The notes under the pieces are model-generated. The model was given only the letters and a program-made list of their open reading frames with translations, did not search any database and was not told where the DNA came from. Positions 13,500-41,650 of a stretch of DNA of 64,000 nt are shown one piece after another. This DNA is from Psammoneis japonica (taxonomy: Eukaryota), in contig QPGO01000249.1 of NCBI GenBank assembly GCA_008632985.1, positions 1 through 64,000 on the forward strand, read 5' to 3'. Every line of letters begins with the position of its first letter. Position 1 is the stretch's first letter. Made by a program: the position numbers and the translations under genes.

Positions 13500-15980
13500 C
13501 AGGTTGTGTGTGTGAAGCACATTTTTCATTGTGAGCAAAAGAACAACACCAAAACCCCCTTCATGGCAAACACCACCAAAAGTGCATCCAGTGACATCCT
13601 GGTTGTCATAAATGGGCAGTGTCAAAGGTGCTGCTGCCAAAAAATCCAAACAGGGGCAGGGCACAGAGAGGCAAAATGGAGCACAAGGGCAGGTCTGCTC
13701 TCTCTCTCTCCTCCAATCAAGCAAAAGAAAAGTTTGCTGCAACAGACACTTGCTGCACAGCTTTGTTGGGCTTGTCATGTTTGCAGTGCACAGATGCGCA
13801 TGTTTTGCTGGTGTGCAAAAAAGGCAGCGCCGCTCGTTTTAGATCTCATTTTTTGTCATTGTTTTGTGTGTGTTTTGGCAGAGCCATTGTCTTGAGGTCT
13901 CATTTGTCTTTTTTCTGGTGTGCACTCTGAGCTGCCAAAGCAGTGTTGCACCACTTGCACATGGTGTGCCCTGAGCTGGTGCATGCCATGCTGCAGACAT
14001 GTGTGGTGCCTCACCAGCCGCGCCATTGTCGTCAGCAATGTGGTCTTTGTTGAGCTCGGGGCTCTGCCCTGCAAAATGTGTGCAACAAGAACAATGTTGT
14101 CAACACAGCCATCCATGGCTGGACCAAATCTCATCTGTGTGCTGGCATCAAAACTTGTTCCAAACTGAGTGCTTTGTGCGTGCTGTGCACATTTGGGCAT
14201 TGCCGGAAGCCTGCCAAGCACTGCGCCCGCTCGGCACACTGCTGCAGCACACTGTCTGGCAGTCTCTCCCATGCTTCCCCACCCTCTCACACATTTCAGT
14301 GCCTTCCACATGCTGGGACATGTGGAGCCAGTTGCTTGGCACTCGGTTGCACGCCATGGTGCGTTCCCACCCCATTTGTGATGGCTTTTGGTGGTCAATC
14401 ATGATGCCGTTCAATGCATTCAATGACATCAATTGAATGGGGTGCAGCACAAAATGTGAGATGAAACACTGCAGCTCATGTGCAGAATGCTGGTTCAATT
14501 GATTGTTGGCCGTCAGCGGCTCTTCAGTCATGTGGCCACAATGTGAGCCACAAGGCATGTGTGGCAAAGGCCAAGGCAAAAGCAGAGCCATGCATGGCCA
14601 ATGACAACAACATGGCAGATTGAACAGTCAACCTCATTCTTCCAATGGGCACATCTCATGTGCAAAATAAAGTGGATCATTCAAACCACTCTTGTGTCAT
14701 GCTGCAGCCACAAATGCAACAAGACATGACAAGGCAAAATTGGAGCTGCACATGGCTGTGAAAAATGTGGTGGATTGACGATGTTCATTCTTCCCTTTGA
14801 CCCATTTTTCCCTCTTGTTGTGCCATGTGGCTGCAAAAAATGCACCACACCACAAGGGCTCTGCTGGAGAGCAAAGGCTGAGACAAAAATTGAGCCGCAC
14901 ACAAGCAATGTTGATGTGGACAATTCAATGGCAAAGTTTGTTCTTTCCTCCATCTGCCTCAAGGGGTTGCTTTGTGTCCATGTGTCAATGCATCAGTCAT
15001 GGTTGTCGGTCGTCACCCACCATTCGTGGCATGGATGGTCATGGGTCTAAGAGCACAACATCCCAGCTGTGGTTGGTGCCCGTTGCCACACTCCATTTGT
15101 TTTTGTTTCCCTCCCCTGAGCCCTTTCAGACGTTCCTTCCCACAAAATTGCCCTCATTTCCTGGGTTTTCCGCAAAAGGGTGAGGCAACTCCCCCTTCCC
15201 CTGGCCATTTTGGGGAATCCAAAAATGGGAGTGAAACCAAGCTGAGCCTCTCAACATTGTGGCTTCTGGCACAGCTCTCTTCGACCTGCTTCTCTGCCAG
15301 AGATTTGACCAAGATCAGCTTGACACTTTTGAAAGCAAAACTTGATATTGCAGCCACAAAGAGCTGCAGCTGGTGATTCAAAGCACACAATTCTGGAGTT
15401 GTTGACAATGTCATAAAAGTGCAAAAGCCCACACTTGCTTTGTTTCCTTCTCTTGGACTCTGCCAATGCATTCCAGCCCTGGCCAGGTGGGACTCTGTGT
15501 TGCATTGGGCCCACAAAACTCCACATGCAAGCTTCAACAATCACCTTTGATGTGCTTGCAGAAAACAGCTGTGAAGAGTGTGTCACAAGCTCAATCAAAT
15601 GACAGACATGGGTCTCTGCATTGTTCCACCAAAGACTTGACATGACAAGATCATCTCCAGATTGGTCCCAGATGAATCCAATGATGAGGATGACAGGTGG
15701 GGCAGATCCCACCCAACATGCAAATGATCTTGCTCTTCCAATGGAACACCTGCATTCCCTGCCAATGCCAGGTGCATTGGCTCCATGTCTGCAGTGGAGA
15801 CAGAAAGTAGGAAGGATGTAGACCAGGCACCCAATCCACTGTGTAACTGTCTAAAGGAGTTATGTGATGGGTCTTGCATGACACATCCAGCCATGTTTTT
15901 CCTTGGACACTCAAGAACAAGGGTGTCCCTGTTCTAATGTGACAGACAACTGAAGTGGTGAGCCTTCGCCAGGCCCAATG
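13500..15980. mobile_element. Copy of dispersed degenerate repeat family A (CpG/TpA-depleted)
   Basis: 13540-14260 aligns to 18020-18420; 14270-15250 to 31210-31890; 15290-15430 to 19290-19430 and 4915-5045. Confidence 0.8.
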
Positions 15981-16012
15981 CGCCGAAATGAAGTGCCGAA
16001 CGCCTCGGGGCA

Positions 16013-16693
16013 TCACCTTGACTGTTTGCTCCTCCGCATTTCTCGTCTTTTCCGTCGTCTCCTCAATCTCTTGCGCAATCCTTTGAAGGGCAGACCTTTT
16101 CCCGTTCTGGTTGCTGGCGGTGTTCTGCTCAGCACGGACTCCATTGCCTCTTTCAGATGCCACTGAATTTCAAACTTGAGTGTAGACAAAATGTTTCGTG
16201 GATGCCACTCACCGTAGTGACGGGTAAATTCCGGAGTGAGATCACCATTGTTTTCCTTGAGAATGTGACTCACCACAGTTTCAACATCTTTCCTCGTGCA
16301 TCTGTCAATAAGAATCATTTCCTTGTCTTGGAAGTACTTTCCGCCAAGGCAATCACCATTTCTCTGTTGCCGTTTTCGGACAAAGTCAATGCTGGAATAA
16401 GTGTAAAAGGCTGCGAAATATTTCTTGCCATTCTGCATTGTAACAAAGACACAGTTATCCACCGAATTCTCGTAGTCCTGTTCTCCGAACATTTCGTCTT
16501 CGATCCAAATCTCCTTGACCATCGTGGGCAAAGTCCCATCATTGGTGTCGCCGTTGATGGCAAGGGAAAGCTTGTGATGGACCCCTTTCCTTGAAGATGG
16601 TGCTCCGTGTCCTGTGGGAACGACGAAGGAATCCACGACACGCATCGTCAGCAGCACCAACAAACAACAGAGTGAGGATGAAATCTTGATCAT
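16013..16693 (-). CDS. Hypothetical protein with plastid-type bipartite presequence and a bacterial-like domain
   Basis: Signal peptide followed by VDS-FVVP; core DNCVFVTMQNGKKYFAAFYTYSSI..GDCLGGKYF..EMILIDRC; normal composition. Confidence 0.7.
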   Translation of the reverse strand: MIKISSSLCCLLVLLTMRVVDSFVVPTGHGAPSSRKGVHHKLSLAINGDTNDGTLPTMVKEIWIEDEMFGEQDYENSVDNCVFVTMQNGKKYFAAFYTYSSIDFVRKRQQRNGDCLGGKYFQDKEMILIDRCTRKDVETVVSHILKENNGDLTPEFTRHYGEWHPRNILSTLKFEIQWHLKEAMESVLSRTPPATRTGKGLPFKGLRKRLRRRRKRREMRRSKQSR

Positions 16694-17091
16694 CTGTGCT
16701 GTTTCTTCGTTCCGGTATCATGTAATGGGAGCTGGCTCTGATGTGTTGGACTGCGTGAAGTAGCAAAATGCTACAAGCCAGATTTTTGGGTGAAGGTTGG
16801 TGCCCGCACTGATGCACACGGTGGAATGACCTATACCTCTATTGTATGTAGACGAGTGAGCGAAATGGAGAGGTCATATTAGCACCCACGCCGAGCAATT
16901 TGGTTTACAATTTTTGAAAAGCACTGTGAATATTCGTTTCGGAACGCTGCCATTACTGTGGCCGGTGACTCCAGTGGTATCATTTCGCTGTCCGTTACCA
17001 AACCTGACTACACGTACAAAAACAAACAAGACAAATCACTTCAACTATCTATCCATTCGCGGGGGCGACGTCACAGAGTCAGAGTGTTCTT

Positions 17092-17685
17092 TTGTTTGTT
17101 TGTGAGTTGTTTGCCTGGGCTGTTTGCGGCTTGCAGGGAGTGCTCTTTCAACAAAAGCCAGAACTGATGATGCGGCTTTATGGTTGGGAAACGCGGCAGG
17201 AGCCGTGCAATTCCGCAAAGAAGATTCTTTGCAACATGTTATCCAAAGAATTGGGGGCATTCATGGTGATTTCGAGCGCTCTGCCCTCTCTATTGACGAG
17301 CGCTCTGCCTTATCTCGGGCATGTCCAGGGTCGAGTTTTTCTTTTACTTCTGGTAATGACTTGGATGCAGTCCTACTCGAAGCTCAACAGCAGCTTGGAT
17401 CTGATTACTGAAATAGGAGACTTAAAGATTGAGCGTTGGTTAGGCATTATTTCACGGCACTTGGTTGCGGGTTGCTTGTTGTGTTATGCAGTTGAGAAGA
17501 AGTTGTGGGTCACCGCTTCCATTCCTTTGTACTTTAACGTTGGCAAAGCCAAACGTTTGTCAAAAAGAGAGAGCAAAATTCATGGCTTGAACAATGGTGT
17601 GAGGTGGACGCTCTTGTGGAAGGGAATTACGGAGTTAGTCATCCTCTCTGCCATTGGATTACCTGCAGTAACTGGGCTGCTCTGA
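17092..17685 (+). CDS. Hypothetical multi-pass membrane protein; 5' structure (possibly from about 16914) unresolved
   Basis: 197-aa ORF with several hydrophobic segments in a normal-composition island; an upstream ORF in another frame has a presequence-like LSIRGG. Confidence 0.4.
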   Translation: MFVCELFAWAVCGLQGVLFQQKPELMMRLYGWETRQEPCNSAKKILCNMLSKELGAFMVISSALPSLLTSALPYLGHVQGRVFLLLLVMTWMQSYSKLNSSLDLITEIGDLKIERWLGIISRHLVAGCLLCYAVEKKLWVTASIPLYFNVGKAKRLSKRESKIHGLNNGVRWTLLWKGITELVILSAIGLPAVTGLL

Positions 17686-17759
17686 AACAACATGGATCTA
17701 CTCTCTAGAGCTAGAGCAGCAGCTATCAGCTGTCCCTGAGTTTTTAACTAAGAGTGAAG

Positions 17760-19620
17760 ATTTTAATGGTCGCATTTGTTGCTGGCGACTTCGATCTGTT
17801 TGCTGTTTGCTTGTGTGCACACCGGGGGGTGACCCATGCACCCATGCAGGAATGGGCCCTCAAGCCCTTGAAGCGTGAAAATTCATTGATTTTGTGCATT
17901 GTGCTGCAGATGTTGAGACCATTCTACTGCGTGGAGTGTTGTGGAGAGAACTTTTTTCCTGGACAAGAAGCCCACAGCAAAGCAGGGCACCAGATGGAGA
18001 TTTCTTGACAAAACACCCAGAACAGCACCAAAACCCAAAACCCACTTCATGGCAAACACCACCTGCAGCACGTCTGGCGGGATCCTGGTTGTCACAAATG
18101 GACCTTTTGGCTCCCATTGATTTTTGCTGTTTTGTGTGTTTTGGCAGAGCCATTGTCTTGAGGTCTCTTTTGTCTTTTTGAGCTTCTGGTGTGCGCTCCA
18201 AGCTGCCAAAGCAGCACTGCATCACTTGCACATTGTCAGCCGCCATCTTTGCTGTGCTTGGGCTGTCAACAACACAGTCATCTCTGGCTGGACCAAATCT
18301 CATCTGTGTGCTGGCATGAGACCTTCCAAGCTGAGTGCTTGTGTTTGCTGTGTGCATTTGGGCATTGCCAGCCTGCCACATGCTGCACCTGCTCGGTGCG
18401 CTGCAGCACTGTCTGGCATTCTCTTTCTGGCAGCAGCTCCACCCAGGAGGTGTGGCAACATTTTGGACCATTTTTCTGAAAAAGTTTCCTGCATGCAAAC
18501 TTTTTTAATTTTTGCTCTGCCTGCAATCTCAGCCATTTGATGGTGTTTGTGCCAAGGAATTCACTGGCCCGAGCCAAAATGAAAAAAAGCCAATGCTTGC
18601 AACCAACCAAAAACAAGGCAGTGGTTGTGAAGCTGATTTTTTTCTTTTCGAAACATGGCAAAGCCATGTTGCAGGAGTGTGCAGCTCAAAGAGTCAGCCA
18701 CACCACTGAGGTGGCTGCGCCACAGCAGTTGGCCCATGACCACATCAGCTTTAAAATGAGGAGGTTGGTTTTTGACATCTTTTGGTGAACAGCTCCACAT
18801 GCTGCAGCTGCTCCATTAGACTGGCTGCAACAAACATGGTTTGCACTGTTGCCATTGTGGCACATGATGATGCTGTTGCCACACAGATGCTTCGTGCTTC
18901 AAATTTTGTGTTTCTCGCTCACATTTTCTTGTTGGTCAAATTGTTTTGACTTTTTTGTCAATGAGACCCTTCAAGCAATAGTTGTCACACCATTTAATCC
19001 ACCACACAACAAATGCAGTCTACTTTGGCCCTCTTGCAAAACAAAGCATTGCCTTTGATGCCCAACCCACCACATGGTCCACTGCCCCATCTTTGTGCAA
19101 TGTGGTCATCCACATTTTTCACTTTGTCCACACACATTTTTGTGGTGTTCTGCCCAACTCTTGTTTGCAAGTCAAATCACCAAGTGGGTGTCATTTGTTT
19201 TGAAATTGCGCCATTTCAGCAAATCCCAGCAGACCACTTTTTTGTGATGGTGATGCCGACACTCTCCCGTCCCCTCCCCGGCTGGTTTCTGCCGTGAATT
19301 TGACCAATGCCAGCTTGATGCTCTTGAAAGCAAATTTTGATGTTGCAGCCACAAAGAGCTGCAACCAGTGATTCAAAGCACACAGCTCTGGGGTTGTTGA
19401 CAACATTGTCATGAAAGTGCAAAAAAGCTCGCATTTTTTTTGTTTTCTTTTCTCGACCTCTGCGCTGCCATGACACGCTTGGGAGGGCGCATTGCTTGAT
19501 GAGGGGGGGGAGGTGAATGGAGAAGAACAAGGAGTAGACAACATGGTGCCGGTGCAAAGACAGCTGGCTAGCCAGCAGAGAAAGAAGCATTTGATCAATG
19601 TCAAGATGACAATCACGTGA
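17760..19620. mobile_element. Second copy of dispersed repeat family A (CpG/TpA-depleted)
   Basis: Shares blocks with 13500-15980, e.g. TTTTGGCAGAGCCATTGTCTTGAGGTCTC and GGACCAAATCTCATCTGTGTGCTGGCAT. Confidence 0.8.
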
Positions 19621-19914
19621 ATCGCCACACCGGCGTCATGACCGCCGTCGTGCAGACCTCTCGGCTATCGGCGCGTACGTATGAAGCCGGCCAGCTGCGC
19701 GCATGCGTCGTCAGTGACACGTGACACGCGCTTCACATTGTTTTATCTTTTTTGATGTTGATTGTTGATGTTGGAGGCATCGGCAACACTGCAGAGCCAG
19801 TAGAGTTGGCTGGTTAGTTGTTGCTTGTTGCGTCGACTCTTTTTACCAGAAAGAAGTTTGGAAGCTGCGATTATTGCTGCAAATGTCCCACAAAAGAGGG
19901 TGGAATTGGTGTTG

Positions 19915-20994
19915 ATGTTGATTGCAATCATGTTATCTTCTGCTCTGCTCTTCACCACCATCTTTGCAGCCATGTGTAACAACATACTAGTCCATCCCGT
20001 CCATGCGTTTGTCCCTCCGCAGAAACGTCGCAGCTTCGTTCAATCTAGGGGAAATTTATCTAGAGTAACAAGTCGGAAGATGGCATTGGTTCCACTGGAG
20101 GTGGCCGAATTGAGAAGGCTTTTGGTGACTGGAACACCGACTGCACCACAATACGCAACCTACTGGGGAAGAACGAGTCGCGAACGGTATGCAAGCATGT
20201 TTGAGAGCGGTGCTGTGATGCTCTTTGGGACGATATGTTCCTATTTTCTGAGCTTTGTTGTTGGAAGCTTTCCCGCTACCATTTTGGGCTCCTTTTGTAT
20301 CTTTTGGATCATTTTAAGTCCAGAAGCACAAGCTTACCAACGGAATTGGGAGTTGCGTGGTGGACGAGAGTTGGTGGACCCCTGGAGCATAGACCCCAGT
20401 CTCCCTCAAGACAAACAAGGCCTCTATGGAGCGCTCCTTTTGGGTAGAATAGCTGATGTGAGTGTCGTTGAGGACGCGAACTCGAAAGATGAATATGACT
20501 TGGACGAATTTCAAGACTACACCATGGAAACGGACGAGCAGGAGAGGTGGAATGGGAATCCTTATTTGCTACGACTTCTTGTTCAAGATTCCGAAGGTCG
20601 AGAAATGCAAGTGCACACTCGCATGAGCGAAGAGTATCTTGATATGAAAGCTAATCAACCCATCGTAGGCGTCTTGTTAAGCACGTCACAACGATTTACT
20701 ACTTTGGCGGCAATGACAGAACTCTTGGTTCCAGATGCTGAATGCTGGGTTGGAGATTACCCGTATCTTGATCGTTTTGAGGTGGAGGCGCTTCTTGGAG
20801 AGGACGACGATGTTTGGGATCAGCTCGAAAATGAGCGAATAACACAACGCAGTCAAAAGGCGCCAGAAGGAGGTGGAAAAGAAGACGAGGAGCAAGATTC
20901 TGCGTTTGTAGACCTAACTGATGACGAAGAAGCTTCTATGAGAACAAGCAATTGGCCGGAAGCTCTACCTGTTCGTCGAAAACGACAGAGATAA
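19915..20994 (+). CDS. Plastid-targeted membrane protein of a conserved cyanobacterial/algal family of unknown function; start approximate
   Basis: Signal plus VHA-FVPP; mature region MALVPL..TAPQYATYWG, two TM helices and WVGDYPYL, resembling a cyanobacterial family recalled from memory. Confidence 0.75.
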   Translation: MLIAIMLSSALLFTTIFAAMCNNILVHPVHAFVPPQKRRSFVQSRGNLSRVTSRKMALVPLEVAELRRLLVTGTPTAPQYATYWGRTSRERYASMFESGAVMLFGTICSYFLSFVVGSFPATILGSFCIFWIILSPEAQAYQRNWELRGGRELVDPWSIDPSLPQDKQGLYGALLLGRIADVSVVEDANSKDEYDLDEFQDYTMETDEQERWNGNPYLLRLLVQDSEGREMQVHTRMSEEYLDMKANQPIVGVLLSTSQRFTTLAAMTELLVPDAECWVGDYPYLDRFEVEALLGEDDDVWDQLENERITQRSQKAPEGGGKEDEEQDSAFVDLTDDEEASMRTSNWPEALPVRRKRQR

Positions 20995-21126
20995 TATAAC
21001 TGGTATTGCGGATCAACTTTCTCGTTTGCTTGTGTTTCACGATAATGTTTATACATTCACGCCATCTACACTAGCGATTTCAAATGTTTGCACCCATGGA
21101 GCCGTCGAGTCATGCCTCGTCCCTCC

Positions 21127-22269
21127 TTACCTGTTGAACTTCAGTTGTGTCAGAAAGTCCACGGCTTCATCATCAAGCTGCGAGTCCAGCGCCTGCAACG
21201 ATGAGCTGAAAATTGAGGTCCCCGCTTTGGGCACGCCATCCTTTTGCGAGGCGCCAATACCACAGGCATCAGATTTCATTTCTTCATACGATCGAATGCC
21301 CCCCATGCGCTCTGGATCTATAATCGGAGAAGTTAAAAGTCTTTGATGATTCAGGGGAGAGATTGGACAGCCAGGTTCGAGTTGTAGAGTGTCTTCCTCA
21401 TAGTCGAGTCTTGATCCTATCTGTGCTGAGTTGCTAGCAACTTGCGGGGGAGTATGCCAACCTCGACCTGTAGTCCCGTGCATTGATGGATCAATATGAA
21501 AACTAGTAGCTGTTTCTGGCAACGTAGGGCTCATCAACGGCGGTAAAGTATTGCTCGAAGCAAAAGGCGCCTTAGCCATATTTAGCGCCTTTGTTGCAGA
21601 CTGCTCTGCTTTAACTTTGGCTCGGTACACCTTCATGGCTGCGTTATATTTCTCCTTTTCTTTCGCGGCTTGCGATGTGTATATGGATCGTGTCTCGGGA
21701 TCGAGTTCTTTCCAGCTGGCGGCAATGGTCTTTGCCAGATTTGCAAAACCAATTCCCAAAGTCTTGACGTGACGGCGTCGTTTTCTTCTCTTGCTGAATT
21801 GTATCTCGTTTGCATCTTGCTCGTGTTCCTCCTTAGTACTTGAAGGTGACGGATGTGAATCGGATGATGAGGTAGCTGCACTAGTGGTGTCACCAGAAGA
21901 ATCTCCATTGCTTGACTGTTTCATCGGAGGACTTTTGGGAGATTCGGGGCTCGCAGCATTGATCAGTCGTTCCCTCTCTTGTTGAAAAAATAAGTTGTAG
22001 GCGGAAAGTGGCCTTCTTGGCATGTCCTTCGGCTTCTTCCACGGTACCTGAGGTGCGGTCTTTCGTTTCATATTTGTCTTTGTTGTACGATTTGTTCCGA
22101 ATGGAGGATATGGAGACTCTGAATGGCTGCTTACCTTGCATGGAGAGGGAGAGGAATAACCTCTTTCACCCGACGACAGGGAACGCTCATTGTCATTCAT
22201 GAGTAGTCCATTGCTATCATCCCACACATTAGTTTCATAAGGCTGTCTTGACGAAGAGTTATCCATCAC
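21127..22269 (-). CDS. HMG-box transcription factor (diatom type, insert within the box)
   Basis: KPKDMPRRPLSAYNLFFQQER ... IGFANLAKTIAASWKELDPETRSIY..A.KEKEKY. Confidence 0.9.
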   Translation of the reverse strand: MMDNSSSRQPYETNVWDDSNGLLMNDNERSLSSGERGYSSPSPCKVSSHSESPYPPFGTNRTTKTNMKRKTAPQVPWKKPKDMPRRPLSAYNLFFQQERERLINAASPESPKSPPMKQSSNGDSSGDTTSAATSSSDSHPSPSSTKEEHEQDANEIQFSKRRKRRRHVKTLGIGFANLAKTIAASWKELDPETRSIYTSQAAKEKEKYNAAMKVYRAKVKAEQSATKALNMAKAPFASSNTLPPLMSPTLPETATSFHIDPSMHGTTGRGWHTPPQVASNSAQIGSRLDYEEDTLQLEPGCPISPLNHQRLLTSPIIDPERMGGIRSYEEMKSDACGIGASQKDGVPKAGTSIFSSSLQALDSQLDDEAVDFLTQLKFNR

Positions 22270-23463
22270 AACTCTACTTTATTGCTTCTGTTGTGTTACT
22301 GAAAGAAATGTGAAAGGGCATCAACTGAGGTTTACACTTCGAGTCATGGCACAACGGCTGATGAAGCATTGCAAAGTGACCAGCACCATCATTTGACAGG
22401 CACTTGTCCCAATGACTTCACATTTGAAAATCGAATAACAACAGCAACGATTTCCTTGTTAGCCACTATGCCTGTCTTATTTAATAGCTCCGATTGTGTG
22501 GCAAACGTCATTTCGGGAAAGGTTATTGAGTCGGAAAAGATTCGAGAATGTCGCAACTATGACCATCGGAAAGTCTTTTCTATCAATCGTGCTTTCGTTC
22601 TTTTCACAAGGCATTGTTCACATGTAAAACTATCTTCCGATCTGTATCAAAATAAGAATTTCAAATTGTATTCAAATAAACCAACGTGATTAATAAGATA
22701 AAGTCATTTACATATGCCTCTTGAAGTCATCCCTTCAGTCAACAATTAGGCCCCAACCTCACTTTTTTTCTTTTTCGTTTCTCCGGTTTGTCCGTGACCT
22801 TCAACCTTTCATTCTTTTCCTTCATACACGAAGAAAATGCGTGGCCGGCTCCTTTTCGAATTGTCGCAGTGACTCGTTCGTCAAAGGACATTGGCTCTCT
22901 GCCTGCTGAGCTCGGTCACAAAACCGGATGCTGGGATGGAACAAAAAGCTTTGTGTCTCTCAATTGTGGACATACAAGGCGAATGCCAGGTATGAATGAT
23001 CGTTCTCGTTATATATTCATACATGGTATACTAATTCAAATTTACATCCGCAGTGTTAACAGACCTGCTGTACAGTACCTTGGTCCTTCGTCCCGAGGCG
23101 GGCAGACACACAAGAGAGCATAACAGGTTATGTAGTGATTCTATGCATCACTAGTAGGAATGAACTAATATTGACTACCTTCTCCGGTTAGAGTATGTGC
23201 AACCCTCTCTCTAGAGAGAGTGTGTAGCTTTAGTTTGTCAGTCCTCTCAACTACCGTACCGGGACCTGGCACCGTGGACGGATGCTGCTGTCGAGAACGA
23301 AACGCACATCATGTGGAAGGAGCATTTTCTGATTTAAAAAGAAAAAAAGCGCCTCCGCAATTTCTAGGGCCCTAAGAGTACAGAGTAACGTGCATAAGTT
23401 CACACCCTGCTATTACACACAGTAGATTCTGCCCCTCTAATATTGTTCCTAAGCTTTATGCAC

Positions 23464-24865
23464 TTATACGTCCGAGTCAGGCACTGGCGAGGACGACGAT
23501 AGCGCCGCTTGCGGAGTAATCTTGTCGAGCGAGTCTGAAATGCGCGCTTTCTTGGACACGGGTCCCTCGGGGATCAACTCGGCAGCGGCCTTGAGAACTG
23601 GAATGCACAAGTGGGGGTAGTTGCGCATTTCTTCTTGAAAGGCAGCGTTGCCCGTGACTTGACGAATATTAGCCATGATAAAGTCAATGCATGCCTTGGA
23701 AAGTCGCTGCGCGTGGAAGTCTTCGGTGGCGCAGTACATGCGAGCAACGGTCTGGACATCCATGTGGTTGCGGATCAACTCGTGTTCGACGAGTCGTTTC
23801 AAATCACGCATGAGCCAAATGTCAGAAAGGTGCAATAAACTCAAAAGGTCGTCTGTGGAAATAGTGCTGAGAATCGAAATGCGATTCGTGTAGACAAACT
23901 CGAGCATGGATCGAATAATGGTCGGAGTAAAGTGCTTCTCCACACGGACAACGCCTTCAGCGGATTCCCGAAACGCCGCTCCGCCCTTACGAAAGAGCGC
24001 CTTGAAGTACTCGGCTCTTGCAGTCAGAATACACTTGTGAGCCATAATTTCTACGACCTTCCCGTCTCCATCGTGCACCAAAAACTTGGCATCCATATGC
24101 TCCTCATCGTCCAGCAGTTCCTTCATATCCTTGAAGAACTCATCGTCGTCTGCAGCTGCTTCCGGCGGATCCGGCTTGCGGCGTTTGCGCACCATGATTG
24201 TATCACCCCGTTGTAACTGAACCGTCTCGGGAGTGTCTTCGTTCTCGAGCGGGTTGCAAAAGTAGTACTCCAAATCATCCTTGCGGAGCCCGTGGTACTT
24301 GGCGTAGTGCCGAAACAAAGACGAGAATCGCTGCGTCTTGAGCATCAGACACGAATAGTTCGTCTCGGCCGTCACGCGACGAATTGTATTTTCGGATCCA
24401 GTCAAATACAAGTCTTCTTCAGCCTATAGTATGGATGATAGGGCAAGAAAATAAAATATCAGAGAGATTAAACAGAAGAAATTGAAGCAGAAAAACGAAG
24501 AACGGTGCAGAACGAAAGAACGGTATGTTAGTCGATGATTCGTCAACAAGAGGGCTAAGCGACGTCTCAACTGCTTTACAACAACAATACTTCATTCGTA
24601 TTTTCCATGGAAAAAGATCTTGCCGCTGCGGACTGCCGCCGAAAAAACAGAGCAGCGGCGAAAACGAACGACAACAGCAAAGACATCTGGCAGGTAAAAT
24701 ACCGTCTCGTAGAATTCACGTACAAAGTGTACTGGGGCCCCGTTGAAGCGGCGGAGATCAACGCACATCATCATGCCTCACCTTGACTGTGAATTCCACG
24801 TGTTCATTCATCGGGCCATTGCCACCACCTCCGCCACCACCTTGTCGTCCGCCATTGTTTGCCAT
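23464..24865 (-). CDS. SUMO-like (Rad60-SLD-type) plus BTB/POZ protein; intron 24424-24781
   Basis: Exon 1 MANNG..EFTVK (28 codons), GTGAGG..TAG intron, exon 2 AEEDLYL..LFRHYAKYHGL..EDTPETVQLQRGDTI; BTB AHKCILTARAEYFKALF..MLEFVYT. Confidence 0.88.
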
Positions 24866-26100
24866 TCTGTTACGTTTTATAAATGAGACAGTAGAAAGTG
24901 AGACAACAGCAGGAGTGCTTTCGATCACAACGTTCGGTGTGTGTATGTGGTGCTGTCGTCGCTCGGTGCTCGGTGATCGAAATCGATCGATCGAGTCCGC
25001 CAGCTTTTTACCGTTGGTTACCGTTATTTTCCTGATAAGGTACAACGACCCCGATGTACATGATGTACGTAAGAAAGTCTCGATGCGAGGTCGCGCTCTC
25101 CAAAAAACTCGTTAGAACACACACACACTCTCTCTCTCCAACGTTGTCTCGAATAATCTCTCGCGGTCCCAGTGGCCATGGCTGAATTTTTTTCGCGGTG
25201 AAGCACGAGAAGCAAACGACCCGATTTTGCACACAAAAAATGGCATGCTGCACTTTGGCGCATCTCGCCAGGGGATGCATTGGCGGTGTGTTCTGGCTGC
25301 AAGGAGGGGGGGTCTTTTTTCTGCCTTTGACACAAAGAGGTTGAGACACTGGTTCAGTTCCCAGGGGTGCTCTGGTTGCCATGCATGGCACAGATGATTG
25401 TGTGCCTTGACTCACCTGTTGGCCTGTTCCAGCTCCAGGTGCTCCGCTTTTCATCACACACTAGATTTTCTGCGCAGTTTTCAGCGCGCCCCAGACATTT
25501 TTGTCTCCACCCGGCAGAGCTCGCACTTTTTGGCTTTGTGCAAACATTGATCATTTCAATGATGCAATGTGTTCATGATGTCAATGCTCATCTACAACAA
25601 CTGAGGTGCATCATGCGTCACAGGAAGAATCGTGTCAGTTGGCATTTGATGTTTTTCTGGCGATGTGCAGAACAATGCTGACTTGTACGAACACGTGCCG
25701 TCCACCCAACACACACCAGGCATGACACAGCACACCACTGTCACTGCTCCACAACCCCCTCTTTGCCCTTGCGGTTGTGTGGAACCATCTGTTCCTTTCA
25801 TTTCAAAGTTGCGTTGTTGTTGTCGCAATGCGATTGCGGCTCCAAAGAGTTGCTGTCATTGTGGATGACACCATCTCTTCGCACTCTCTTGTTTCAAATT
25901 CGGCAAGTCAATTTATCATGTTTTTTTTACATGTCACCATGCACGTGTGTTTTTCTGGTTGCTTCTCACATCTTGTTTTATGGCTGTTTTGCACCAGGGC
26001 CTTCAGAATTTCTGCAAAACTCAAGCATTCGCCCGAGCGTTCTCCGAGCAACAGTTGCCACTGGAACAAACTTGTCTTGGTTTGTTTTCACTGTGACGCT

Positions 26101-26356
26101 TGCTGTTTGCACTTTTCAGCATCTGGAACTGCCTCAGAGGTTGCCTCTGTTCATCTGCATCACTTTCGCGGTTGCTGACGTTGGCCCCCTCTCTGGAGTG
26201 CATTTGTCGCACAAGCGGGAGCGCAGCTTTGCTGTTTGACACTTTTCAGCATCTGGAGCTGCCTCAGAGGCTGCCTCTGTTCATCTGCATCACTTTTTCA
26301 GTGAATGACATTGGCCCCCTCTCTGGAGTGCATTTGTCGTGCAAACAGGAGTGCAA
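26101..26356 (+). repeat. Tandem duplication, unit about 129-130 bp
   Basis: TGCTGTTTG..ACTTTTCAGCATCTGGA..TTGGCCCCCTCTCTGGAGTGCATTTGTCG starts at 26101 and 26230. Confidence 0.9.
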
Positions 26357-26815
26357 AAGCAGTGCAATCACCATGGACATGTTGGCCAAAGTGACCTCCC
26401 AGCAGCATCCCGTTGGCGGCAGTTCCCCTCAAGCAAACGACGACTCTTCCAGCATGTTGAAGGTTCCCTTTTGTGTCCAGCGTTGCATCAAGGCACTCGC
26501 AGAACATTGCCCACCGCAGGGCAAAGCCAAAACTTGGCACACTGTGCCTCTCCAAGATGCAGTTGATCCCCTTGCGTGCCCTCAAGGTCTTGTAGATTTG
26601 AGCATCTTGACCACAGAAGATCGTGGAACCAAGAAGACGAGCCCTCTCTTTCATGTTCTTCATCACAAGAATGGCTTCAATGGGTTCAACAGTGCCAAAA
26701 CACGGAACATGTTCTGCAGCGCTGTTGTCGATTGGTTTTGTGAAAATGCGCGTCGTGCGTTTTTACACCCCGAATTGCACCCCTTCGTCATGACTGCAAT
26801 GGGTCTAAGGACAAG

Positions 26816-27681
26816 GTGGGGTCGATTTGCAACCCACCACAGATTGCCAAACTGAAGAGATTGACTGAAGTGGAGATTCAAAAACTTCCACCTGTTGGGT
26901 GGGGAGCTGACTTCATTGGCTGCAGCTTGGGGAGGGGAACCGTCCCATGCATGCAACCCTGGATTGGGCTGAGTGCAATTTCAAGTTTTGGCTTCCAGAT
27001 GTGTGGAAAGATTTGAAAGAATTGAAGCCATCAGATGGTTGTTGCTCCTTGCCAGAAGGAAACATGTTGATGCCATTGAACAGCAACCAGCTGATGAGTG
27101 GTCCACCCACAAAATTCCTGCAAGGACAAAACGACACTTGCATTTTTTCCTCCCTGGCCAGTGTTCTTGGTTGTGCTGGTGACGTGGAAACGAGAGACTG
27201 CATTGCTTCTCACATTCAAACATCTGCCAACTGTGCTGACACTGACAACAAGCACATGTTGTTTGCAAAGCACATGTTGAGCGGTCGTTTGAAGGGAAAA
27301 TTCCCACCTGCGAACTCAAACATTGGGTTTTGTGGCAATGTGGATCAAACAATTTCCCTTGCAGCAGGTGGCAAATTTGATGTGACGACCTGCAATGATG
27401 ACTTCACAACTTTGTGCCATCTTGTGAACAACCACTGCATTGCCTTGCACTGTGGTTGGATCTTTGATTCCAACCACCCTTTTGCATTGAAAGCAAAGGA
27501 CACTGAGTGCTTGAATTGGTGTCTTGGGAATGAGGAACATGAGGTGAAATGTGTGGTGAAAAAGCGTCTGCAACAAGTGTTCATGGCGCACCAGTTCGAA
27601 CTTCCCAGGGCGGTGCAGCAGCAGTTGCACACAAAAAGGAAAGCTTTTGTGTTGGATGGTTGGTCCAGTTGCACAATGTAA
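26816..27681 (+). pseudogene. Papain-like cysteine peptidase-type domain (transposon cargo), degenerate
   Basis: LDWAE(C)NF, Q..DTCIFSSLASVL and NHCIAL..WIFDSN..AL..LNWC give a Cys/His/Asp spacing; frameshift near 26945; no Tyr. Confidence 0.55.
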
Positions 27682-30600
27682 AGTGACAATGACAGTGTTC
27701 ATTCATTTTCCCATTGCCATTTTGTTTGTCCGACTCATCACTGTCACTGTCCCCTGCTGCGATCTCATCATCCTTTGCAGTGTCTTCCTTGTCATCATTC
27801 TCTCCCTCCCACTCACCAGCTTTGCTGTCTTGTTCCTCCACCTCATCCAAACAGTTCTCAAAACAATCCATTGCCTCCCGCTGTCGGATGGCATCCAGAA
27901 TTCCTTCATGCTGACTTGTCATCACTCAAATGATGTGGGTCAAGAAGTGAAGCCTCACTCCTGTTGCACTGCATGCACTTGGCAGTTCCAGATTGGCCGA
28001 TGATTCATCAAGCTCAATGTTGGCAATTGCAATTTGCTTGAGCAACACTCTTGTCTTGCATTCCTCAGCATCACCAGGAGTGTGCCATCCTCCAGCCCGT
28101 GGAACAGGGTTAAGATGTGTTCCCTTGCAAACCCATTCACCGGCTTTGACAGTTGTGGGTGGGTCAAACTCTTTCCACACCTCATCCTCCTGTGCTTTGT
28201 GGGGGAGTTCATCCCATTGCAGCAGACAGAAGCCCTCCTCAGATTCACAAGACAATGCGGCACAGCTGTTTGGAACAATTTCCTTGGCCATTTCCTCAGT
28301 CAGGAAGTCCAACACAGATTTGTGAACCAACTGCACCTTGTCAGCGTCACTCTTTTTGTCTGTTTGAATCACCTGGCACACTTGCCAATCGTTCAGTCCC
28401 TCAAAGATGGGCCACAGTTTGCAAGCTCGGTTGCCACCTGCATGTCGTGGCTGCTCTGTTGGCTCAACATTTTTAACCCATGGCCATTTGAGCTGATCCA
28501 GGCAGGCTTCACAAGCACAAGGAATTCTTTGCATGGCAATCCAACCAACGGGGAAAAGAGGTTCAAATCAGAAACAGTGCAAGGCTCCAATGCCACAATG
28601 GCATGTGCACACTTGCACCAATCCAATCAACTTGACTTTGATTGAAGAGCCAAGAACTTTGTCAGCTTCCTGCAGACAATGCACCCTTTGCATTGGCTTT
28701 CAAAGGGATTCCCTCTTGGCATGTTTTCTGACACCAACTGCGCCGAAAGCATTCTTTTGTTCTTTGTGACCATTTTGCAACATTCCTTGGCACAACTGTG
28801 TGCAGCTGCAACACTGTTGTCATCCATGACCAAAGCTTCAGGTCCAATTTTCCCATCCTTGTCATTGACTCCTGCAACAGTTGTGGGCTGCATTTCTTGA
28901 GGTGCGAGTGATTTGATGTGGGCTCCAATGCCATCAACCTCTCCTTTGCCATGTCCAGGTGCTCCAATGGCACGGTCAAACACAATGTTGCATTTGTGCA
29001 CAAACACAGACAACAAGTGCAGTGCCAAAGCACATCGGTGCTGTTTGGCACAACCATCAGTGTGATCCCAAATCACAAGCCACGCCTCACACAGGTTGCA
29101 GTTTTTTAACCAGGTGACAAACTTTTCCAAGTGAGCATGGGTGGTGGTGGCATGTTGCTTGGAAGAGTCAGAGAGGTGCGCATGATGTGTTTTCTGAAGC
29201 TCGTTGTCAACCATTGCATCGCAAACTCTTCCTTCAGTTGACAATGTTCGGTTGTCGCCACAATGGTCACCCTGAACTTGGTTGTTGAACTCTGCCTTCT
29301 GATGCTCGGAGCAGTCATGAGACGTGAATGGGCTGTTGGGTGTTGACTCAAATGCTTTGCAGCACATTTCCATGCAATGATTTTTCCCAAGAATGGCCGC
29401 GTGGGGAAGGTGGTGGCAGAGCTTCTTTAAACTTGGAATGCAGTGCTCTTTTGTAAAGACCCTGACTGGTTTTCAGTTCGTCTCACCTTTGCATCCTTGT
29501 TCCCATCTGGATCTGCCTCACAAACAGGACATGCTTCCATGCACACACCATGCTTGGAACAACTTTTTACAGGCAATCAATGTTGAAACGAAATTTGGGG
29601 CACACTGGGACTTTCATTCTGTTCCAACAACGGAGTTGGATGGGATGGGCAATGCTTGCATTCACCCAAAATGCATTTCCAATGAGGATGATCCTGACCA
29701 TTGACATTGCCACAAACGATGGTTGCAACTGCATCTTGGGCCCCAGGATGAAGGTGATGGCTGTTGGGGCCAAACGCTTCCTCTTGACAGACACACATTG
29801 TTTCCTCTGATTTGCCAAGGGCACTGTCACAGTTCTCCAAGTTCTCAGGATCCTCACTTGCAAGCTTCAACTGATTTTGCTCCACCTCCATCTCTTTTAA
29901 AAGCTTCCTTCGAAACCTGTTCAATGCATCTTGTAGAAAATTGGCGCTGGTGCAATCACTGCATTGACACATGCTGTGTTGACTTGCGTTCATTTTTCGA
30001 CACTGCTTGGGAATCAAAAATCAAAACATCGTGTCACTGATGAGGGTCTTGCCATTGGCATCACGTGCATGTTCAAATCCACCAACAGACACAGGCTTCA
30101 ACATGTTGTTGTGGAGCTCACGCGTGGACACATTGCGCAACCATTTGTTCACTCGTTTCTTGTTTCCATCTTCATCTTTGATGAGAATCATGTCTCGTGT
30201 GTTGGGAGACTGCACTGTGTCAGGATGATTTGACAACCAGTGCACAAATGCCTTGTGGATCTCAGGGGAAACTTTGTGAGGATGCCGACGGGGTTGCACT
30301 GAAGACCACATGACATCGTCAGTGTTTGAAATCAAGGCCTCTCTGCGGCAATCTTTCCCTTCTTCATTTGGCGACAAACAGTGCTCCAATTCAGGCCAAG
30401 TGCCTTGGCGCAGTCATGGGAAGACAACTTTTCCTCATCAGCAGATTTTTCTGGTGAACCGGAGATTTCAGTTGCCAGAGCACAGACAAATGATTTTTTG
30501 TCGTCGGTGAGGTGTTGACCATTGCTGGTGTCGTTGGCACGTGCCCACATTTTGCCCAACTGCTTGGTCATCTGCAAGGCCACATCTCCGAATGGACAAT

Positions 30601-30700
30601 TGCAGCCACACATCAATGACGGTCTAACAGAGCTTTTGTTGCAATGGTCCAAAAAGCGACGAATGTTTAGACACCTTGTCTGCTGCATCAATGTCATCAT
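27581..30700 (-). pseudogene. Sola2-like DDD transposase, inactivated
   Basis: WDHTDGCAKQ(H)RC, GAPGHGKGEVDGIG, RIPCACEAC, MCQCSDC and CSKHG motifs; in-frame TGA at likely Arg positions (30021-30023, 28568-28570, 27926-27928) plus frameshifts. Confidence 0.75.
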
Positions 30701-31209
30701 CGGCTCCGGCGGGTTTTTGACAATTTCTCTGTGTTGTCGCCACGGGGATGGTCTGCACGCTCATCCGGAGCACGCCGGCCATGCCAGTTTGAAGTCATTC
30801 AAGGCCTGGGTCTTGTGGCTTTGATGAGAGAAGATGTCTCCTGGCTGCAATCCGAGCAATCAAATTGATGATGTCAGCTTGGCCTCTCTGAGAACGTGAA
30901 AAAAGATGCTGCGTGAAACACAGCAGCAAGTTTGCGCATGTGCTTGGTTTTTCCCGCCTTTGTGCACTGCAAATGTGTCCAAGGGTTGTGCTGATGATCA
31001 TCCTGTGGTTCAATTAAAACCAGAATCTGCCTGCTCAGTCCCTTGGTTTGGTTTTGCCGCGGGACTCCCCAAAATTCCCCGGGATTGCCACCTTTTGCTC
31101 TCTGCGATTTTCCACGGGAAGCATGATTTCCCGGGGAATCGGCACGAGCTGCACTTCGTCACACATGCACCACACACGTGAATGAAAAATTGCACATTGG
31201 CAATTCCCT

Positions 31210-31890
31210 GTGCTTCCCTTCTCACACATTTCTGCATCTTCTGCATGCCGGGACGCAGGAGCCAGACAATCGACCGACCGCAACAAAAAAAATGGGCAAC
31301 ACGCCATGGCGCGTTCGCACCACATTTTATGATGGCTTTTGTCTGTCAATCATGACACCATTCAATGCATTCGACAACATCAATTGAGCGGGATCTGCAT
31401 CACAAAACACAAGATGAAATGTGGTTGCTCATGTGCAGAATGCCAGCGCAATTTTGAGTCGTCAGCCGTCAGTTGTTCTTTTGTCGTGCAGCCCAAAATG
31501 CAAGCCACAAGCCACACAGCATTCAGAAAGGCAAGCCACAAGGCATCCAGTGTGAAGGACAAGGCAAAATTAGAGTCGCACATGGTCAACAAAAATGTGG
31601 CAGATTGATCGACAATGTTTGTTCTTCCCTTTGACCTGTCTTGTGCACAGAACACAGTGCATCATGCATTCCTTCTTGTGTCGTGTGGTCACAAATGCAA
31701 ACCACAACGGCTCCAGAGAGCAGAGGCCAAGGCAAAAACAGAGCCGCACATGAGCAATGTCAACATGCATGATTCAATGGCGAAGTTCATTCTTCCCTGA
31801 CTCTGCCATTGGGGGCTGCTTTGTGTCGATTTGCCATTTTGGGGAATCCCCAAACGGGTGAAACCAAGCCAAGCTCAGCCCTTGTCTCAT
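31210..31890. mobile_element. Third copy of dispersed repeat family A
   Basis: Aligns to 14270-15250 (ACGCCATGG, GTCAATCATGA, TTCAATGCATTC, CCATTTTGGGGAATCC). Confidence 0.8.
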
Positions 31891-41200: not shown

Positions 41201-41650
41201 TGCCAGGCAGACCTGTGAGCGACTACAAAACAAGAGCAAAAGTGAGAGAAAAGCAGCGCCATAGAAAAAAGCATCAAATGCCCAAAAGACGGGCTTTGCA
41301 ATGAATGCAAACACACAACCATGAGATTTTTAATGGCTCCTTTGGCAAGCATTGGCATTCTCACCTTTGTCCTCCAATCACCAAGCAGAAATGTCAACAC
41401 CACTGTTCGCTGTTGCCGACATGGCAGCACCGCGTGTTTCCTCTCTTGCAGCAAAAGCCGTCATCTCAAACACCCAAAAGGCGAGAGGGTTGGCAAAAAT
41501 CCAACACAAGCATCGTTTTCTTCACAATCACATCAGTCAACAATGGCATCCATGCCTTTGCTGCAATGGGTGCCAAGCACAACTGTGGGCATTCAAAGGC
41601 CATGGGGTGCAGGTGATGGCACGGTGTCTTTTTTGTGCGTCGTTTCCTTC
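38270..41650. mobile_element. Degenerate transposon block including a piggyBac-like remnant (about 39560-40550, + strand)
   Basis: DQVVQKK(C)KITALMRSQNWWQNF(H)SW resembles piggyBac DQ..Y..R.KWW..F.W; CQLHIW..VACPECSRNICAPC resembles the C-terminal Cys-rich domain; strong CpG/TpA loss. Confidence 0.55.
40780..41590 (+). repeat. Degenerate tandem repeat, period about 370 bp, about 2.5 units
   Basis: CTGCAATGGGTG preceded by CAAT-containing homology near 40830, 41190 and 41560; 41040-41220 aligns to 41395-41590. Confidence 0.7.

Follow-up and report, generated by a model that had tools for sequence, protein, structure and literature searches.

Region-targeted transition hypermutation of TpA, and of CpG with it, that is still active is the best reading of a 64-kb stretch of nuclear DNA from the diatom Psammoneis japonica (contig QPGO01000249.1, positions 1 to 64,000; the whole stretch is referred to as the window), and this organism seems to have a targeted process that edits its DNA. 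This reading is carried by a mosaic of base composition with sharp borders, an excess of double swaps between TG and CA in repeat copies, the replacement of TA and CG in a block copy when set beside its gene-island paralogue, and a 2-kb cluster of differences confined to TpA, one site of which is polarised as T>C. We consider it probable that DNA outside transcription units undergoes a dinucleotide-specific transition hypermutation in which TpA and CpG become TpG or CpA on both strands.

Gene islands alternate with blocks depleted in TA and CG

The window contains a silicon transporter gene and is diatom nuclear DNA. It consists of gene islands alternating with sharp-edged depleted blocks, which amount to about 27 kb, or about 42% of the 64 kb. 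Over 13 block segments (27,050 bp), the dinucleotide totals were 81 TA and 455 CG, versus 3093 TG and 3007 CA. TA occurs at 3.1 per kb in blocks and 36.3 per kb in islands, and CG at 16.4 and 52.2 per kb, that is, TA is depleted 12-fold and CG 3-fold. Expressed as observed over expected (o/e), block TA is 0-0.1 (about 0.04 over 27 of the 64 kb) and the TA/AT ratio is 81/1431, about 0.06, while TG and CA are doubled relative to the usual level, reaching an o/e of about 1.9, a value that equals island TG/CA (about 1.2) plus half of island TA (0.5) and CG (1.0). Runs of at least 250 bp without any TA number 43 and add up to 23.5 kb, the longest measuring 1826 bp. One such stretch, 31015-31328, lacks TA although its CG is near-normal (o/e 0.91); gene islands hold CG at an o/e of about 1.0.

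The block borders are abrupt, with a TA o/e of 0.50 in the 250 bp outside versus 0.09 in the 250 bp inside, and TA in the islands erodes towards the borders only slightly, if at all (o/e 0.39-0.50 in the nearest 500 bp, 0.54-0.57 past 1 kb). A search across the window for TA-enriched regions found none, the top 500-bp o/e being 1.13. Clustered TpA depletion together with CpA/TpG enrichment is the long-term trace expected of TpA hypermutation, and it is present here. The blocks also show a CG deficit with a TG/CA surplus, and copies differ by CG versus TG/CA. The blocks and internal repeats that enter the comparisons are:

13501..15800, no strand assigned: depleted block A, carrying repeat copy A (13549-15463), with 6 TA and 28 CG versus 275 TG and 272 CA in 2300 bp
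17751..19650, no strand assigned: depleted block B, carrying repeat copy B (18035-19463), collinear with A by BLAST
25951..35550, no strand assigned: large depleted block with copy C (31300-31836), paralogous to A; TA o/e 0-0.1, CG o/e 0.07-0.83
26100..26355, plus strand: tandem pair in the high-copy block, about 130 bp per copy and 88% identical, in which 4 columns set CG against CA/TG and 1 swap occurs
40785..41590, plus strand: degenerate tandem repeat of about 365 bp in a depleted block, part of the swap count, with 9 swaps in 422 aligned bases

By contig depth, two blocks are high-copy repeats, and older repeats elsewhere could have diverged past detection. In block A, 14335-15668 has a summed contig depth of 800-1370 versus about 62 for single-copy DNA, and 25007-32343 is a high-copy repeat with a summed depth of 1300-3700, about 20-60 times the single-copy value. 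At a likeness of at least 80%, 13668-14334 is about single-copy by depth, as is block B with a depth of about 62-86. Among the 145 block ORFs of at least 90 aa scanned with Pfam, none reached the cut-off, so that neither transposons nor viruses can be recognised by their domains; the sole near match, a weak one to KilA-N (E 0.0049), lies below the cut-off. No deaminase domain was detected among the window ORFs scanned. Given the lack of transposon or viral domains in the blocks and the single-copy state of block B at that likeness, targeting by repetition is at most a candidate mechanism. The high-copy repeat family is already without TA among the matches listed, so that much of the TA loss may predate the spread of the family, or may be very fast.

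Repeat copies differ by double swaps between TG and CA

The original prediction held that paralogous repeat copies catch the mutation directly, with TA in one copy and CA or TG in another. An exact search of the window located all 12 strings quoted for this at or near the places assigned to them (starts at 13605, 18091, 31566, 14736, 15344, 19339, 15412, 19410, 14451, 31404, 14400 and 31351), each with a single occurrence except CATGAAAG, which has two. The TA or its counterpart lies exactly at 13609, 18095, 31571 and 14741, and the positions given as approximate are correct to about 11 bases. Self-BLAST places the strings in genuine paralogous alignments: 13549-15463 of A matches 18035-19463 of B in four collinear pieces at 80-81% identity, and 14350-14987 matches 31300-31836 at 67-75%. 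Block copies diverge by 20-33%, mostly through transitions, and recoding to purines and pyrimidines lifts paralog identity to 90-95%, from 75-83% in four letters. A self-search in the recoded alphabet for older repeats, where E-values are uncalibrated, recovered or extended the same families and gave no convincing new one. The core common to A and B has a further copy:

4915..5068, plus strand: copy D of the conserved core common to A (15301-15411) and B (19286-19441), BLAST identity 83% and 74%, used in a three-way alignment

A third copy thus exists for two of the four quoted TA examples (15346 and 15414), and at both sites the other two copies read TG, the TA being private to copy A. Judged from the paralogs alone, such a TA may have survived, or it may have arisen from TG by back-mutation. 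The core of the proposed change from TA to CA or TG is supported, but its direction cannot come from the two-copy examples themselves, and three-copy alignments held too few informative columns to reveal an intermediate state of the swap columns.

Swaps were counted in 12 non-redundant depleted-block alignments comprising 1904 aligned bases, 388 mismatches and 258 transitions; 14521-14643 and 14567-14719 versus the 31.6 kb region were left out because they overlap other alignments via internal repeats. The 46 double swaps between TG and CA exceed chance: 2000 shuffles that preserve the substitution spectrum of each base gave 8.6 on average and never more than 19. Two controls were run. In a gene island, an 84-nt tandem repeat that is coding gave 0 swaps in 370 bases, and silicon-transporter loci of other diatoms, compared in eight independent pairs at 68-85% identity, gave 24 swaps versus 16.1 expected in 11,217 bases. 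Neighbouring swaps had the same orientation in 22 cases and the opposite one in 13, no more strand coordination than the overall 32:14 imbalance predicts.

Conservation of dinucleotides between copies follows the same pattern. TA was kept in 0 of 14 occurrences and CG in 18% of 65, versus 58-74% for the remaining 14 dinucleotides, and 39 of the 65 CG occurrences stand opposite CA or TG in the other copy. The most frequent non-identical partner of CA and TG is the double swap (46), ahead of CG (21 and 18) and TA (3 and 7). The swap excess, together with the island-versus-block pair described below, supports the view that swaps are independent resolutions of an ancestral TA or CG on opposite strands. 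The emphasis placed on TA stands in so far as TA is lost, but CG contributes no less than TA (39 CG-versus-CA/TG columns versus 10 TA-versus-CA/TG columns), and the ancestor of any single swap column may be either TA or CG.

Extreme and sharply bounded depletion could also reflect functional constraint, with TA and CG purged from the blocks by selection as harmful, be it as targets of nucleases or binding proteins or for structural reasons. Purifying selection would, however, eliminate a lost TG and not re-resolve it to CA, and the double swap is nonetheless the commonest partner. The blocks are otherwise fast-evolving, at the divergence given above, with no detectable domains, and the cluster of TpA differences described below lies mostly in a gene island and alters seven TA together within 2 kb. 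We regard selection as an improbable explanation.

A gene-island copy gives the polarity of the change

One paralogous pair joins a gene island and a depleted block:

48250..48588, no strand assigned: normal-composition copy in the gene island, inside ORF 48011-48751 (minus strand), with 9 aligned TA and 21 aligned CG
50796..51159, no strand assigned: depleted-block paralogue of 48250-48588, with only 1 TA of its own

In a transition-tolerant alignment of the two, all nine TA of the island copy are replaced in the block copy, by TG (5) or CA (4). Opposite the 21 CG, the block copy shows TG at 5, CA at 10, CG at 2 and other dinucleotides at 4, so that 15 of 21 appear as TG or CA. The pair gives the polarity: TA and CG have turned into TG and CA.

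Ordinary CpG decay alone, through deamination of 5-methylcytosine in methylated repeats, would derive all swaps from CG and would take the TA-versus-TG/CA differences as C>T back-mutations. The larger number of CG than of TA columns (39 and 10) speaks for it, as does the private nature of the TA of copy A in the three-copy core. Such decay has no means of removing TA, yet TA is reduced more strongly than CG (12-fold and 3-fold), TA-free stretches such as 31015-31328 have near-normal CG, and the island TA are TG or CA in the block copy without exception. The cluster described next, with seven of seven differences at TpA and none at CpG, adds to this, and we find CpG decay as the sole cause very hard to credit.

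A cluster of TpA differences between contigs of the same sample

Two runs, X1 and X2, are stored as contigs and were compared with the window at the level of contig letters and summed contig depth; variant places come from the 40 listed of the 1374 in the contig comparison. X2 mainly covers genic pieces. One feature stands out:

15346..17407, no strand assigned: seven differences, all at TpA, that set the window apart from the one X1 contig covering this region (contig span 15142-18162)

The differences are T>C at 15346, 17009, 17046 and 17240 and A>G at 16932, 16979 and 17407. All seven are TpA>CpA or TpA>TpG, with none on CpG and none C>T, and the chance of seven of seven falling on TA is P ~3e-10 (66 TA in 3021 bp; TA bases make up 4.4% of positions). 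T>C and A>G alternate along the strand, so that both strands are interleaved at short range. Density is also distinct, with 7 differences in 2.06 kb versus 4 in the adjoining 7.16-kb contig. Over 13,208 single-copy bases compared between the window and X1 contigs, 9 of 11 differences are A>G or T>C, two of which, at 19065 and 19611 (both A>G), lie off TpA. The seven-site cluster and the complete lack of TA conservation between copies further support the loss of TA to CA or TG, and the strongest evidence that catches the process in the act comes from alleles, not from paralogs.

The direction can be read at one site of the seven: since 15346 is part of a TA in the window and of a CA in X1, with TG in paralogues B and D, the T>C change arose on the X1 lineage. 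For the other six, the direction rests on agreement with the composition. Most of the cluster is in a gene island, and it extends into a promoter and an ORF, 17167-17685, where two sites cause Leu/Ser (17240) and Thr/Ala (17407) differences; among 61 candidates of near lengths only, no homologue of this ORF that could polarise them was found at E<=0.001.

Fungal RIP favours CpA>TpA, and a RIP-like C>T process at CpA and TpG would reverse the polarity, producing TA and making the window haplotype the mutated one, which the six unpolarised sites would allow. The window, however, has no TA-enriched region and is nearly TA-free over 42% of its length, and at 15346 the window and two paralogues share T, making C the derived letter. 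The experiment in Bigelowiella natans also gave the direction TpA>TpG/CpA (10.64898/2026.01.13.699255). Reversed polarity is the reading to which we give almost no credence.

The cluster could also be technical, if modified TpA led to errors in base calling or polishing or if strains were mixed, in which case the block composition would be the relic of a process that has ended. The evidence does consist of contigs, and X1 and the window may come from different technologies. Both forms are nevertheless backed by independent data from one sample, X2 having the window's letters at six of the seven sites (15346 is outside its coverage) and X1 carrying the alternative letters at full single-copy depth, and the four differences in the adjoining contig are of other kinds, none at TpA. 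We regard a technical origin as very unlikely.

Comparison with known systems

The closest known case to this region-targeted hypermutation is that of the chlorarachniophyte B. natans, in which integrated viral DNA undergoes TpA-specific hypermutation and, in mutation-accumulation lines, every hypermutation struck TpA and produced TpG or CpA (Mettrop et al., bioRxiv 2026, 10.64898/2026.01.13.699255). In both systems, A>G and T>C changes cluster by region and hit TpA, turning it into TpG or CpA whichever strand is affected, and over the long term TpA is depleted while CpA and TpG are enriched. The B. natans process is interpreted there as defending the genome from foreign or repeated DNA, and a defence role is proposed here too. 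B. natans is a rhizarian, whereas the host here is a stramenopile; the TA o/e of about 0.04 over 27 of 64 kb compares with a Rho of 0.45 in the B. natans viral region, and essentially all DNA between transcription units is affected here. CpG loss accompanies TpA loss in the diatom and is absent from the B. natans account, as far as the accessible portion of that text goes. Unlike the viral targets described there, the blocks have no recognisable viral or transposon domain, and a rate raised by orders of magnitude was measured there in mutation-accumulation lines, whereas the comparison here is one of difference densities. The preprint text contains no occurrence of diatoms.

RIP in ascomycete fungi is likewise a transition-only, dinucleotide-specific mutagenesis of repeats in which copies diverge independently, and it can spill over into adjacent single-copy DNA. 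It creates TpA through C>T, mainly at CpA, whereas TpA is destroyed here and the TpA step requires A>G. RIP is restricted to duplicated sequence; here, 14335-15668 and 25007-32343 are repeated, and block B and 13668-14334 are about single-copy at a likeness of at least 80%, so that older, more diverged repeats may lie there.

Diatoms have methylated transposons. Decay of 5-methylcytosine at CpG, as in vertebrates and plants, similarly leaves a non-genic CG deficit with a matching TG/CA surplus while islands keep CG, but it accounts for the CG half only, and TA loss is more complete here than CG loss.

Deaminases of the ADAT2/3, TadA and ADAR types favour an A preceded by U or T, as in TpA, and an enzyme of this kind at work on the blocks would carry the HxE-PCxxC motif. 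Editing of DNA by ADAT2, at A and/or C, has been reported for amphioxus and Trypanosoma (cited in 10.64898/2026.01.13.699255). The interleaving of both strands over short range differs from the strand-coordinated clusters of single-strand deaminases. Cytosine deaminases of the APOBEC/AID type, which leave strand-coordinated C>T clusters at TpC or WRC, were rejected: the cluster has no C>T and alternates between T>C and A>G, and the order of TG and CA is no more strand-coordinated in blocks than in islands (z 2.0 vs 4.9).

Proposed process

In the process we propose, TpA would be changed to TpG or CpA, as A>G on either strand. CpG would likewise become TpG or CpA, and both strands would be struck in short-range interleaving. 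Paralogous copies would be mutated independently and would therefore differ by transitions and by double swaps of TG versus CA. Enough exposure would leave a block almost without TA, with little CG and with TG and CA at twice the usual level, and any TA or CG remaining in a block would be transient. The TpA step would be enzymatic, most plausibly through an ADAT/TadA-type adenine deaminase acting on DNA, or alternatively through a symmetric TpA modification that miscodes; the CpG step would be deamination of 5-methylcytosine. Targeting may proceed via repeat status or silent chromatin, as genome defence.

A wider interpretation, which we offer tentatively and with some doubt, is that this diatom lineage has an active DNA-editing defence that converts palindromic TpA, and CpG with it, in silent or repeated chromatin, on either strand and to exhaustion. 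Such a defence would do by adenine editing what RIP does in fungi, and its machinery may be common to the rhizarian system, as an old trait of the SAR supergroup. It would have rewritten roughly 40% of the window and would still hit single haplotypes beside repeats, including promoters and coding sequence.

Significance

Within the literature searched, a single 2026 preprint, devoted to one alga, describes hypermutation of nuclear DNA directed at TpA, and a full-text search for TpA hypermutation in diatoms found nothing. Comparable blocks were not seen at silicon-transporter loci of other diatoms in a small sample of 22 metagenome loci, five of them longer than 3 kb.

If the proposed process is real, it would have run its full course here across nearly all non-genic DNA and would not be peculiar to one species or to viral inserts. 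The diatom would then be far better material in which to look for the enzyme and for the signal that directs it. Annotators should be warned that blocks lacking TAA and TAG stops yield long spurious ORFs in all six frames. As the seven-site cluster extends into a promoter and an ORF, the process may also feed clustered mutations to genes beside repeats. TA-free, CG-poor and TG/CA-rich blocks would provide a simple genomic marker of silenced DNA, and the process would account for the repeats without recognisable genes in such genomes.

Identity and compositional mosaic of the window

The window consists of nuclear DNA of a eukaryote, either a diatom or something very closely related to one. One of its genes encodes a silicon transporter (E 1e-202 in a Pfam search of the ORF), and the best database relatives of this protein, up to 72% identical, include proteins from sources named as diatoms and the bolidophyte Triparma. 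Since these relatives are only about 72% identical, none of those proteins comes from a very close relative of the organism. Other ORFs in the window carry IBR, HMG-box, BTB, and CAAX-protease domains.

60319-62016, + strand: silicon transporter gene, no introns, Pfam PF03842

Dinucleotide composition, followed in 500-bp steps, falls into two sharply distinct states. Gene islands have observed/expected ratios (o/e) of about 0.4-0.7 for TA, 0.8-1.3 for CG, and 1.0-1.4 for TG/CA, and the depleted blocks have 0-0.1, 0-0.8, and 1.6-2.2, respectively. The 27,050 bp of blocks, counted as 13 segments of which two overlap slightly, contain 81 TA, 455 CG, 3093 TG, 3007 CA, and 1431 AT. After merging into nine blocks, the densities are 3.1 TA/kb and 16.4 CG/kb, compared with 36.3 TA/kb and 52.2 CG/kb in the islands. 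In all, 43 runs of at least 250 bp are free of TA, the longest spanning 1826 bp. Block borders are sharp, with a TA o/e of 0.09 in the inner 250 bp versus 0.50 in the outer 250 bp, and blocks start about 100-450 bp from the flanking ORFs. Promoter DNA between genes of an island, for example 16694-17166, retains TA, indicating that depletion is a property of particular domains and not of non-coding DNA per se.

Adding half of the island TA (0.5) and CG (1.0) values to the island TG/CA value of about 1.2 gives about 1.95, the TG/CA value in the blocks, and this arithmetic fits a conversion of TA and CG. Within blocks, TA has been lost more completely than CG, and the two losses are partly uncoupled, as shown by TA-free runs with a CG o/e of 0.6-0.9, such as 30668-31328. 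This run and those at 34611-35083 and 45088-45400 combine zero TA with near-normal CG (o/e 0.6-1.06). The explanation that CpG decay alone produced the blocks fails on at least one tested point.

Transitions and TG<->CA swaps between paralogous copies

The original prediction had quoted 12 sequence strings from repeat copies, carrying either TA in one copy and CA or TG in another or a reciprocal TG<->CA swap. All 12 were found at or near the places indicated, and they lie within genuine paralogous alignments (A-B, A-C, and the core shared with D) among the following copies:

A versus B, 13549-15463 versus 18035-19463: four collinear pieces, 80-81% identity
A versus C, 14350-14987 versus 31300-31836: 67-75% identity
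Copy D, 4915-5068: third copy of the conserved core

When the sequences were recoded as purines and pyrimidines, paralogous pairs became 90-95% identical, so the differences between copies are mostly transitions. Double differences in which TG in one copy faces CA in the other (swaps) were counted in 12 non-redundant block alignments comprising 1904 aligned bases, of which those of A, B, and D are mutually non-independent; 14521-14643 and 14567-14719 versus the 31.6 kb region were left out because of overlap. These alignments contain 388 mismatches, 258 transitions, and 46 swaps, compared with a mean of 8.6 and a maximum of 19 swaps in 2000 shuffles preserving the per-base substitution spectrum. 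Swaps account for 92 of the 388 mismatched bases and are the commonest non-identical partner of both CA and TG, above every single-step change.

Two controls show that this excess is specific. An 84-nt coding tandem repeat from a gene island showed no swap over 370 bases, and silicon-transporter loci of other diatoms, compared as eight independent pairs (68-85% identity, 11,217 bases), gave 24 swaps versus 16.1 expected. The tandem repeat comprises six 84-nt units (28 codons) at 35951-36578 within the island ORF 35649-36698, has normal CG (o/e 1.2-1.5), and has the appearance of a coding repeat. Selection against TA and CG, as an alternative account of the depletion, fails on at least one tested point.

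In the block paralogue alignments, TA was conserved in the partner copy in none of 14 cases, 10 of them facing TG or CA, and CG in 18% (n = 65), with 39 facing CA or TG; the other 14 dinucleotides were conserved at 58-74%. TA and CG in blocks are thus transient. Adjacent transitions also occur beyond TA and CG contexts: for example, copy D differs from A and B at four consecutive positions (one T/C followed by three G/A; 4990-5000 versus 15380-15390), and the second most common double change is AT<->GC (n = 8). Such patterns hint at A>G editing that is not confined strictly to TpA.

Direction of change

The TA differences between two copies reported in the original prediction are real; their direction is not readable from two copies alone. 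A third copy is available for two of its four TA examples, at 15346 and 15414, where TA is present only in A and both B and D have TG. This private TA of copy A could have been retained or could be a back-mutation. Three further lines of evidence bear on polarity, two of them from the differences within one sample described below; the first is a pair with one member in each compositional state:

48250-48588: island copy, normal composition, in a gene island
50796-51159: block copy of the same sequence, in a depleted block, with one TA of its own

In a transition-tolerant alignment, each of the nine island TA is opposite TG (5) or CA (4) in the block copy. The 21 island CG face TG or CA in 15 cases (5 TG, 10 CA), are kept in two, and face other dinucleotides in four, and the 56 island TG and CA are the same in 40 cases, swapped in five, TA in one, CG in two, and other in eight. 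Normal DNA would yield the block copy through no process beyond the one already demanded by block composition; the reverse direction would need about 40% of the TG/CA sites in 48250-48588 to have turned into TA or CG. A reversed, RIP-like polarity fails on at least one tested point.

The proposal that swaps arose by independent resolution of an ancestral TA or CG is supported at its core, with caveats regarding polarity and the share of CG. Both sources contribute in the polarised pair (9 TA and 15 CG), and in an individual swap column, TA and CG are not distinguishable as the source in these data.

TpA differences within one sample

Contigs from X1 and X2, two runs of one sample, were aligned on 13001-33000. 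Over the 13,208 bp covered by single-copy pieces of X1, 11 positions differ from the window, and seven of these lie at 15346-17407 within one 3,021-bp contig (15142-18162). All seven fall on TpA:

T>C from window to X1, TpA context: 15346, 17009, 17046, 17240
A>G from window to X1, TpA context: 16932, 16979, 17407

Bases in TA make up 4.4% of the positions in this contig, giving P ~3e-10 for seven of seven, and of the 47 TA between 15346 and 17407, seven differ in X1. The X2 contig has the window letters at six of the seven sites, 15346 being outside its coverage; thus both forms are present in one sample. Site 15346, the only one of the seven with an outgroup, reads TA in the window, CA in X1, and TG in paralogues B and D. 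With T as the first base in all but X1, the change was T>C in TpA context on the X1 lineage. The adjacent 7,157-bp X1 contig has four differences (A>G in AA context, CA>CG, CG>TG, and G>A), and the remaining X1 single-copy pieces show none. That the differences are a technical artefact fails on at least one tested point.

Two of the seven sites fall in ORF 17167-17685, causing Leu/Ser and Thr/Ala changes; a homologue search with this ORF detected no homologues. X2 contigs are almost confined to ORF-bearing pieces (13050-13329, 16547-17839, 19778-20957, 21582-21827, and 23557-24810) at very uneven depth, and X2, labelled 'DNA?', may be a transcriptome.

Repeat status and content of the blocks

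Single-copy DNA has a summed contig depth of about 62, compared with 800-1370 over 14335-15668 and 1300-3700 over 25007-32343, indicating that these two intervals belong to dispersed repeat families whose copies number in the tens at a likeness of at least 80%. At this threshold, the block holding copy B and part of the block holding copy A are single-copy. Transitions account for 1037 of the 1374 places at which the window and contigs differ, and among the 40 places listed there are at least three complete swaps (27110/1, 28575/6, and 29808/9), each in 3-11 contigs. In the rows listed for the repeat family, CG gains from TG/CA in the window copy (four) and CG losses (three) are about equally frequent.

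Lacking TAA and TAG, the blocks contain many ORFs of 90-280 aa that overlap one another and occupy all six frames (145 are at least 90 aa long), and such stop-poor blocks could mislead gene finders. None of the 145 reached the cut-off in a Pfam scan. A weak KilA-N match at 30024-30413 (- strand) in the high-copy block (E 0.0049, 17 bits, below cut-off) is all that points to a viral or mobile-element origin, and it could easily have arisen by chance.

Proposed mechanism and comparison with known systems

The best-supported explanation is a region-targeted, dinucleotide-specific transition hypermutation. It would convert TpA to TpG or CpA, and CpG to TpG or CpA, in repeat or silent DNA, would have run near to completion in the blocks, and would still be active. 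Separate copies, resolved independently, would then show TG<->CA swaps, which could also arise by cycling, where an ordinary transition recreates TA or CG that is then resolved again.

The TpA cluster at 15346-17407 shows T>C alternating with A>G along its length. Co-orientation of neighbouring swaps was not significant (22 same, 13 opposite), and TG/CA order was no more clustered in blocks than in islands. Together, these observations indicate that both strands are hit at short range, which is more in keeping with recognition of the palindromic dinucleotide in duplex DNA than with a processive deaminase acting on single strands. The TpA step might be adenine deamination by an enzyme of the ADAT/TadA type, or it might involve a symmetric TpA modification that miscodes, and the CpG step may be 5mC deamination.

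The closest known case, described in a 2026 preprint, is TpA hypermutation in Bigelowiella natans. There, mutation-accumulation lines revealed two integrated viral regions mutating ~1000-fold faster than the remaining genome, with changes almost only A>G and T>C, all of those on TpA; the genome contains clustered TpA-poor, CpA+TpG-rich windows, and the authors proposed an ADAT2-like DNA adenine deaminase (10.64898/2026.01.13.699255). Relative to that account, the mutational signature is common to both and the lineage differs. TA o/e is about 0.04 in the diatom blocks versus 0.45 in the B. natans viral region. Unlike in B. natans as described there, essentially all DNA between transcription units is affected in this window, TpA loss is coupled with CpG loss, and no viral or transposon genes are recognisable in the blocks.

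RIP of fungi is the functional analogue; as an identification it was rejected on a defining test, because RIP makes TpA, which is destroyed in the diatom blocks (TA/AT 81/1431). A full-text search of one literature library found no report of such hypermutation in diatoms, and such blocks were present in none of 22 silicon-transporter loci of other diatoms, only five of which exceed 3 kb. A diatom-like metagenome contig with a distant silicon transporter (L021, 1-3000) has intergenic TA enriched at an o/e of 1.8, the opposite of the window blocks. The diatom finding is a variant form of a kind of process that has been described only very recently.
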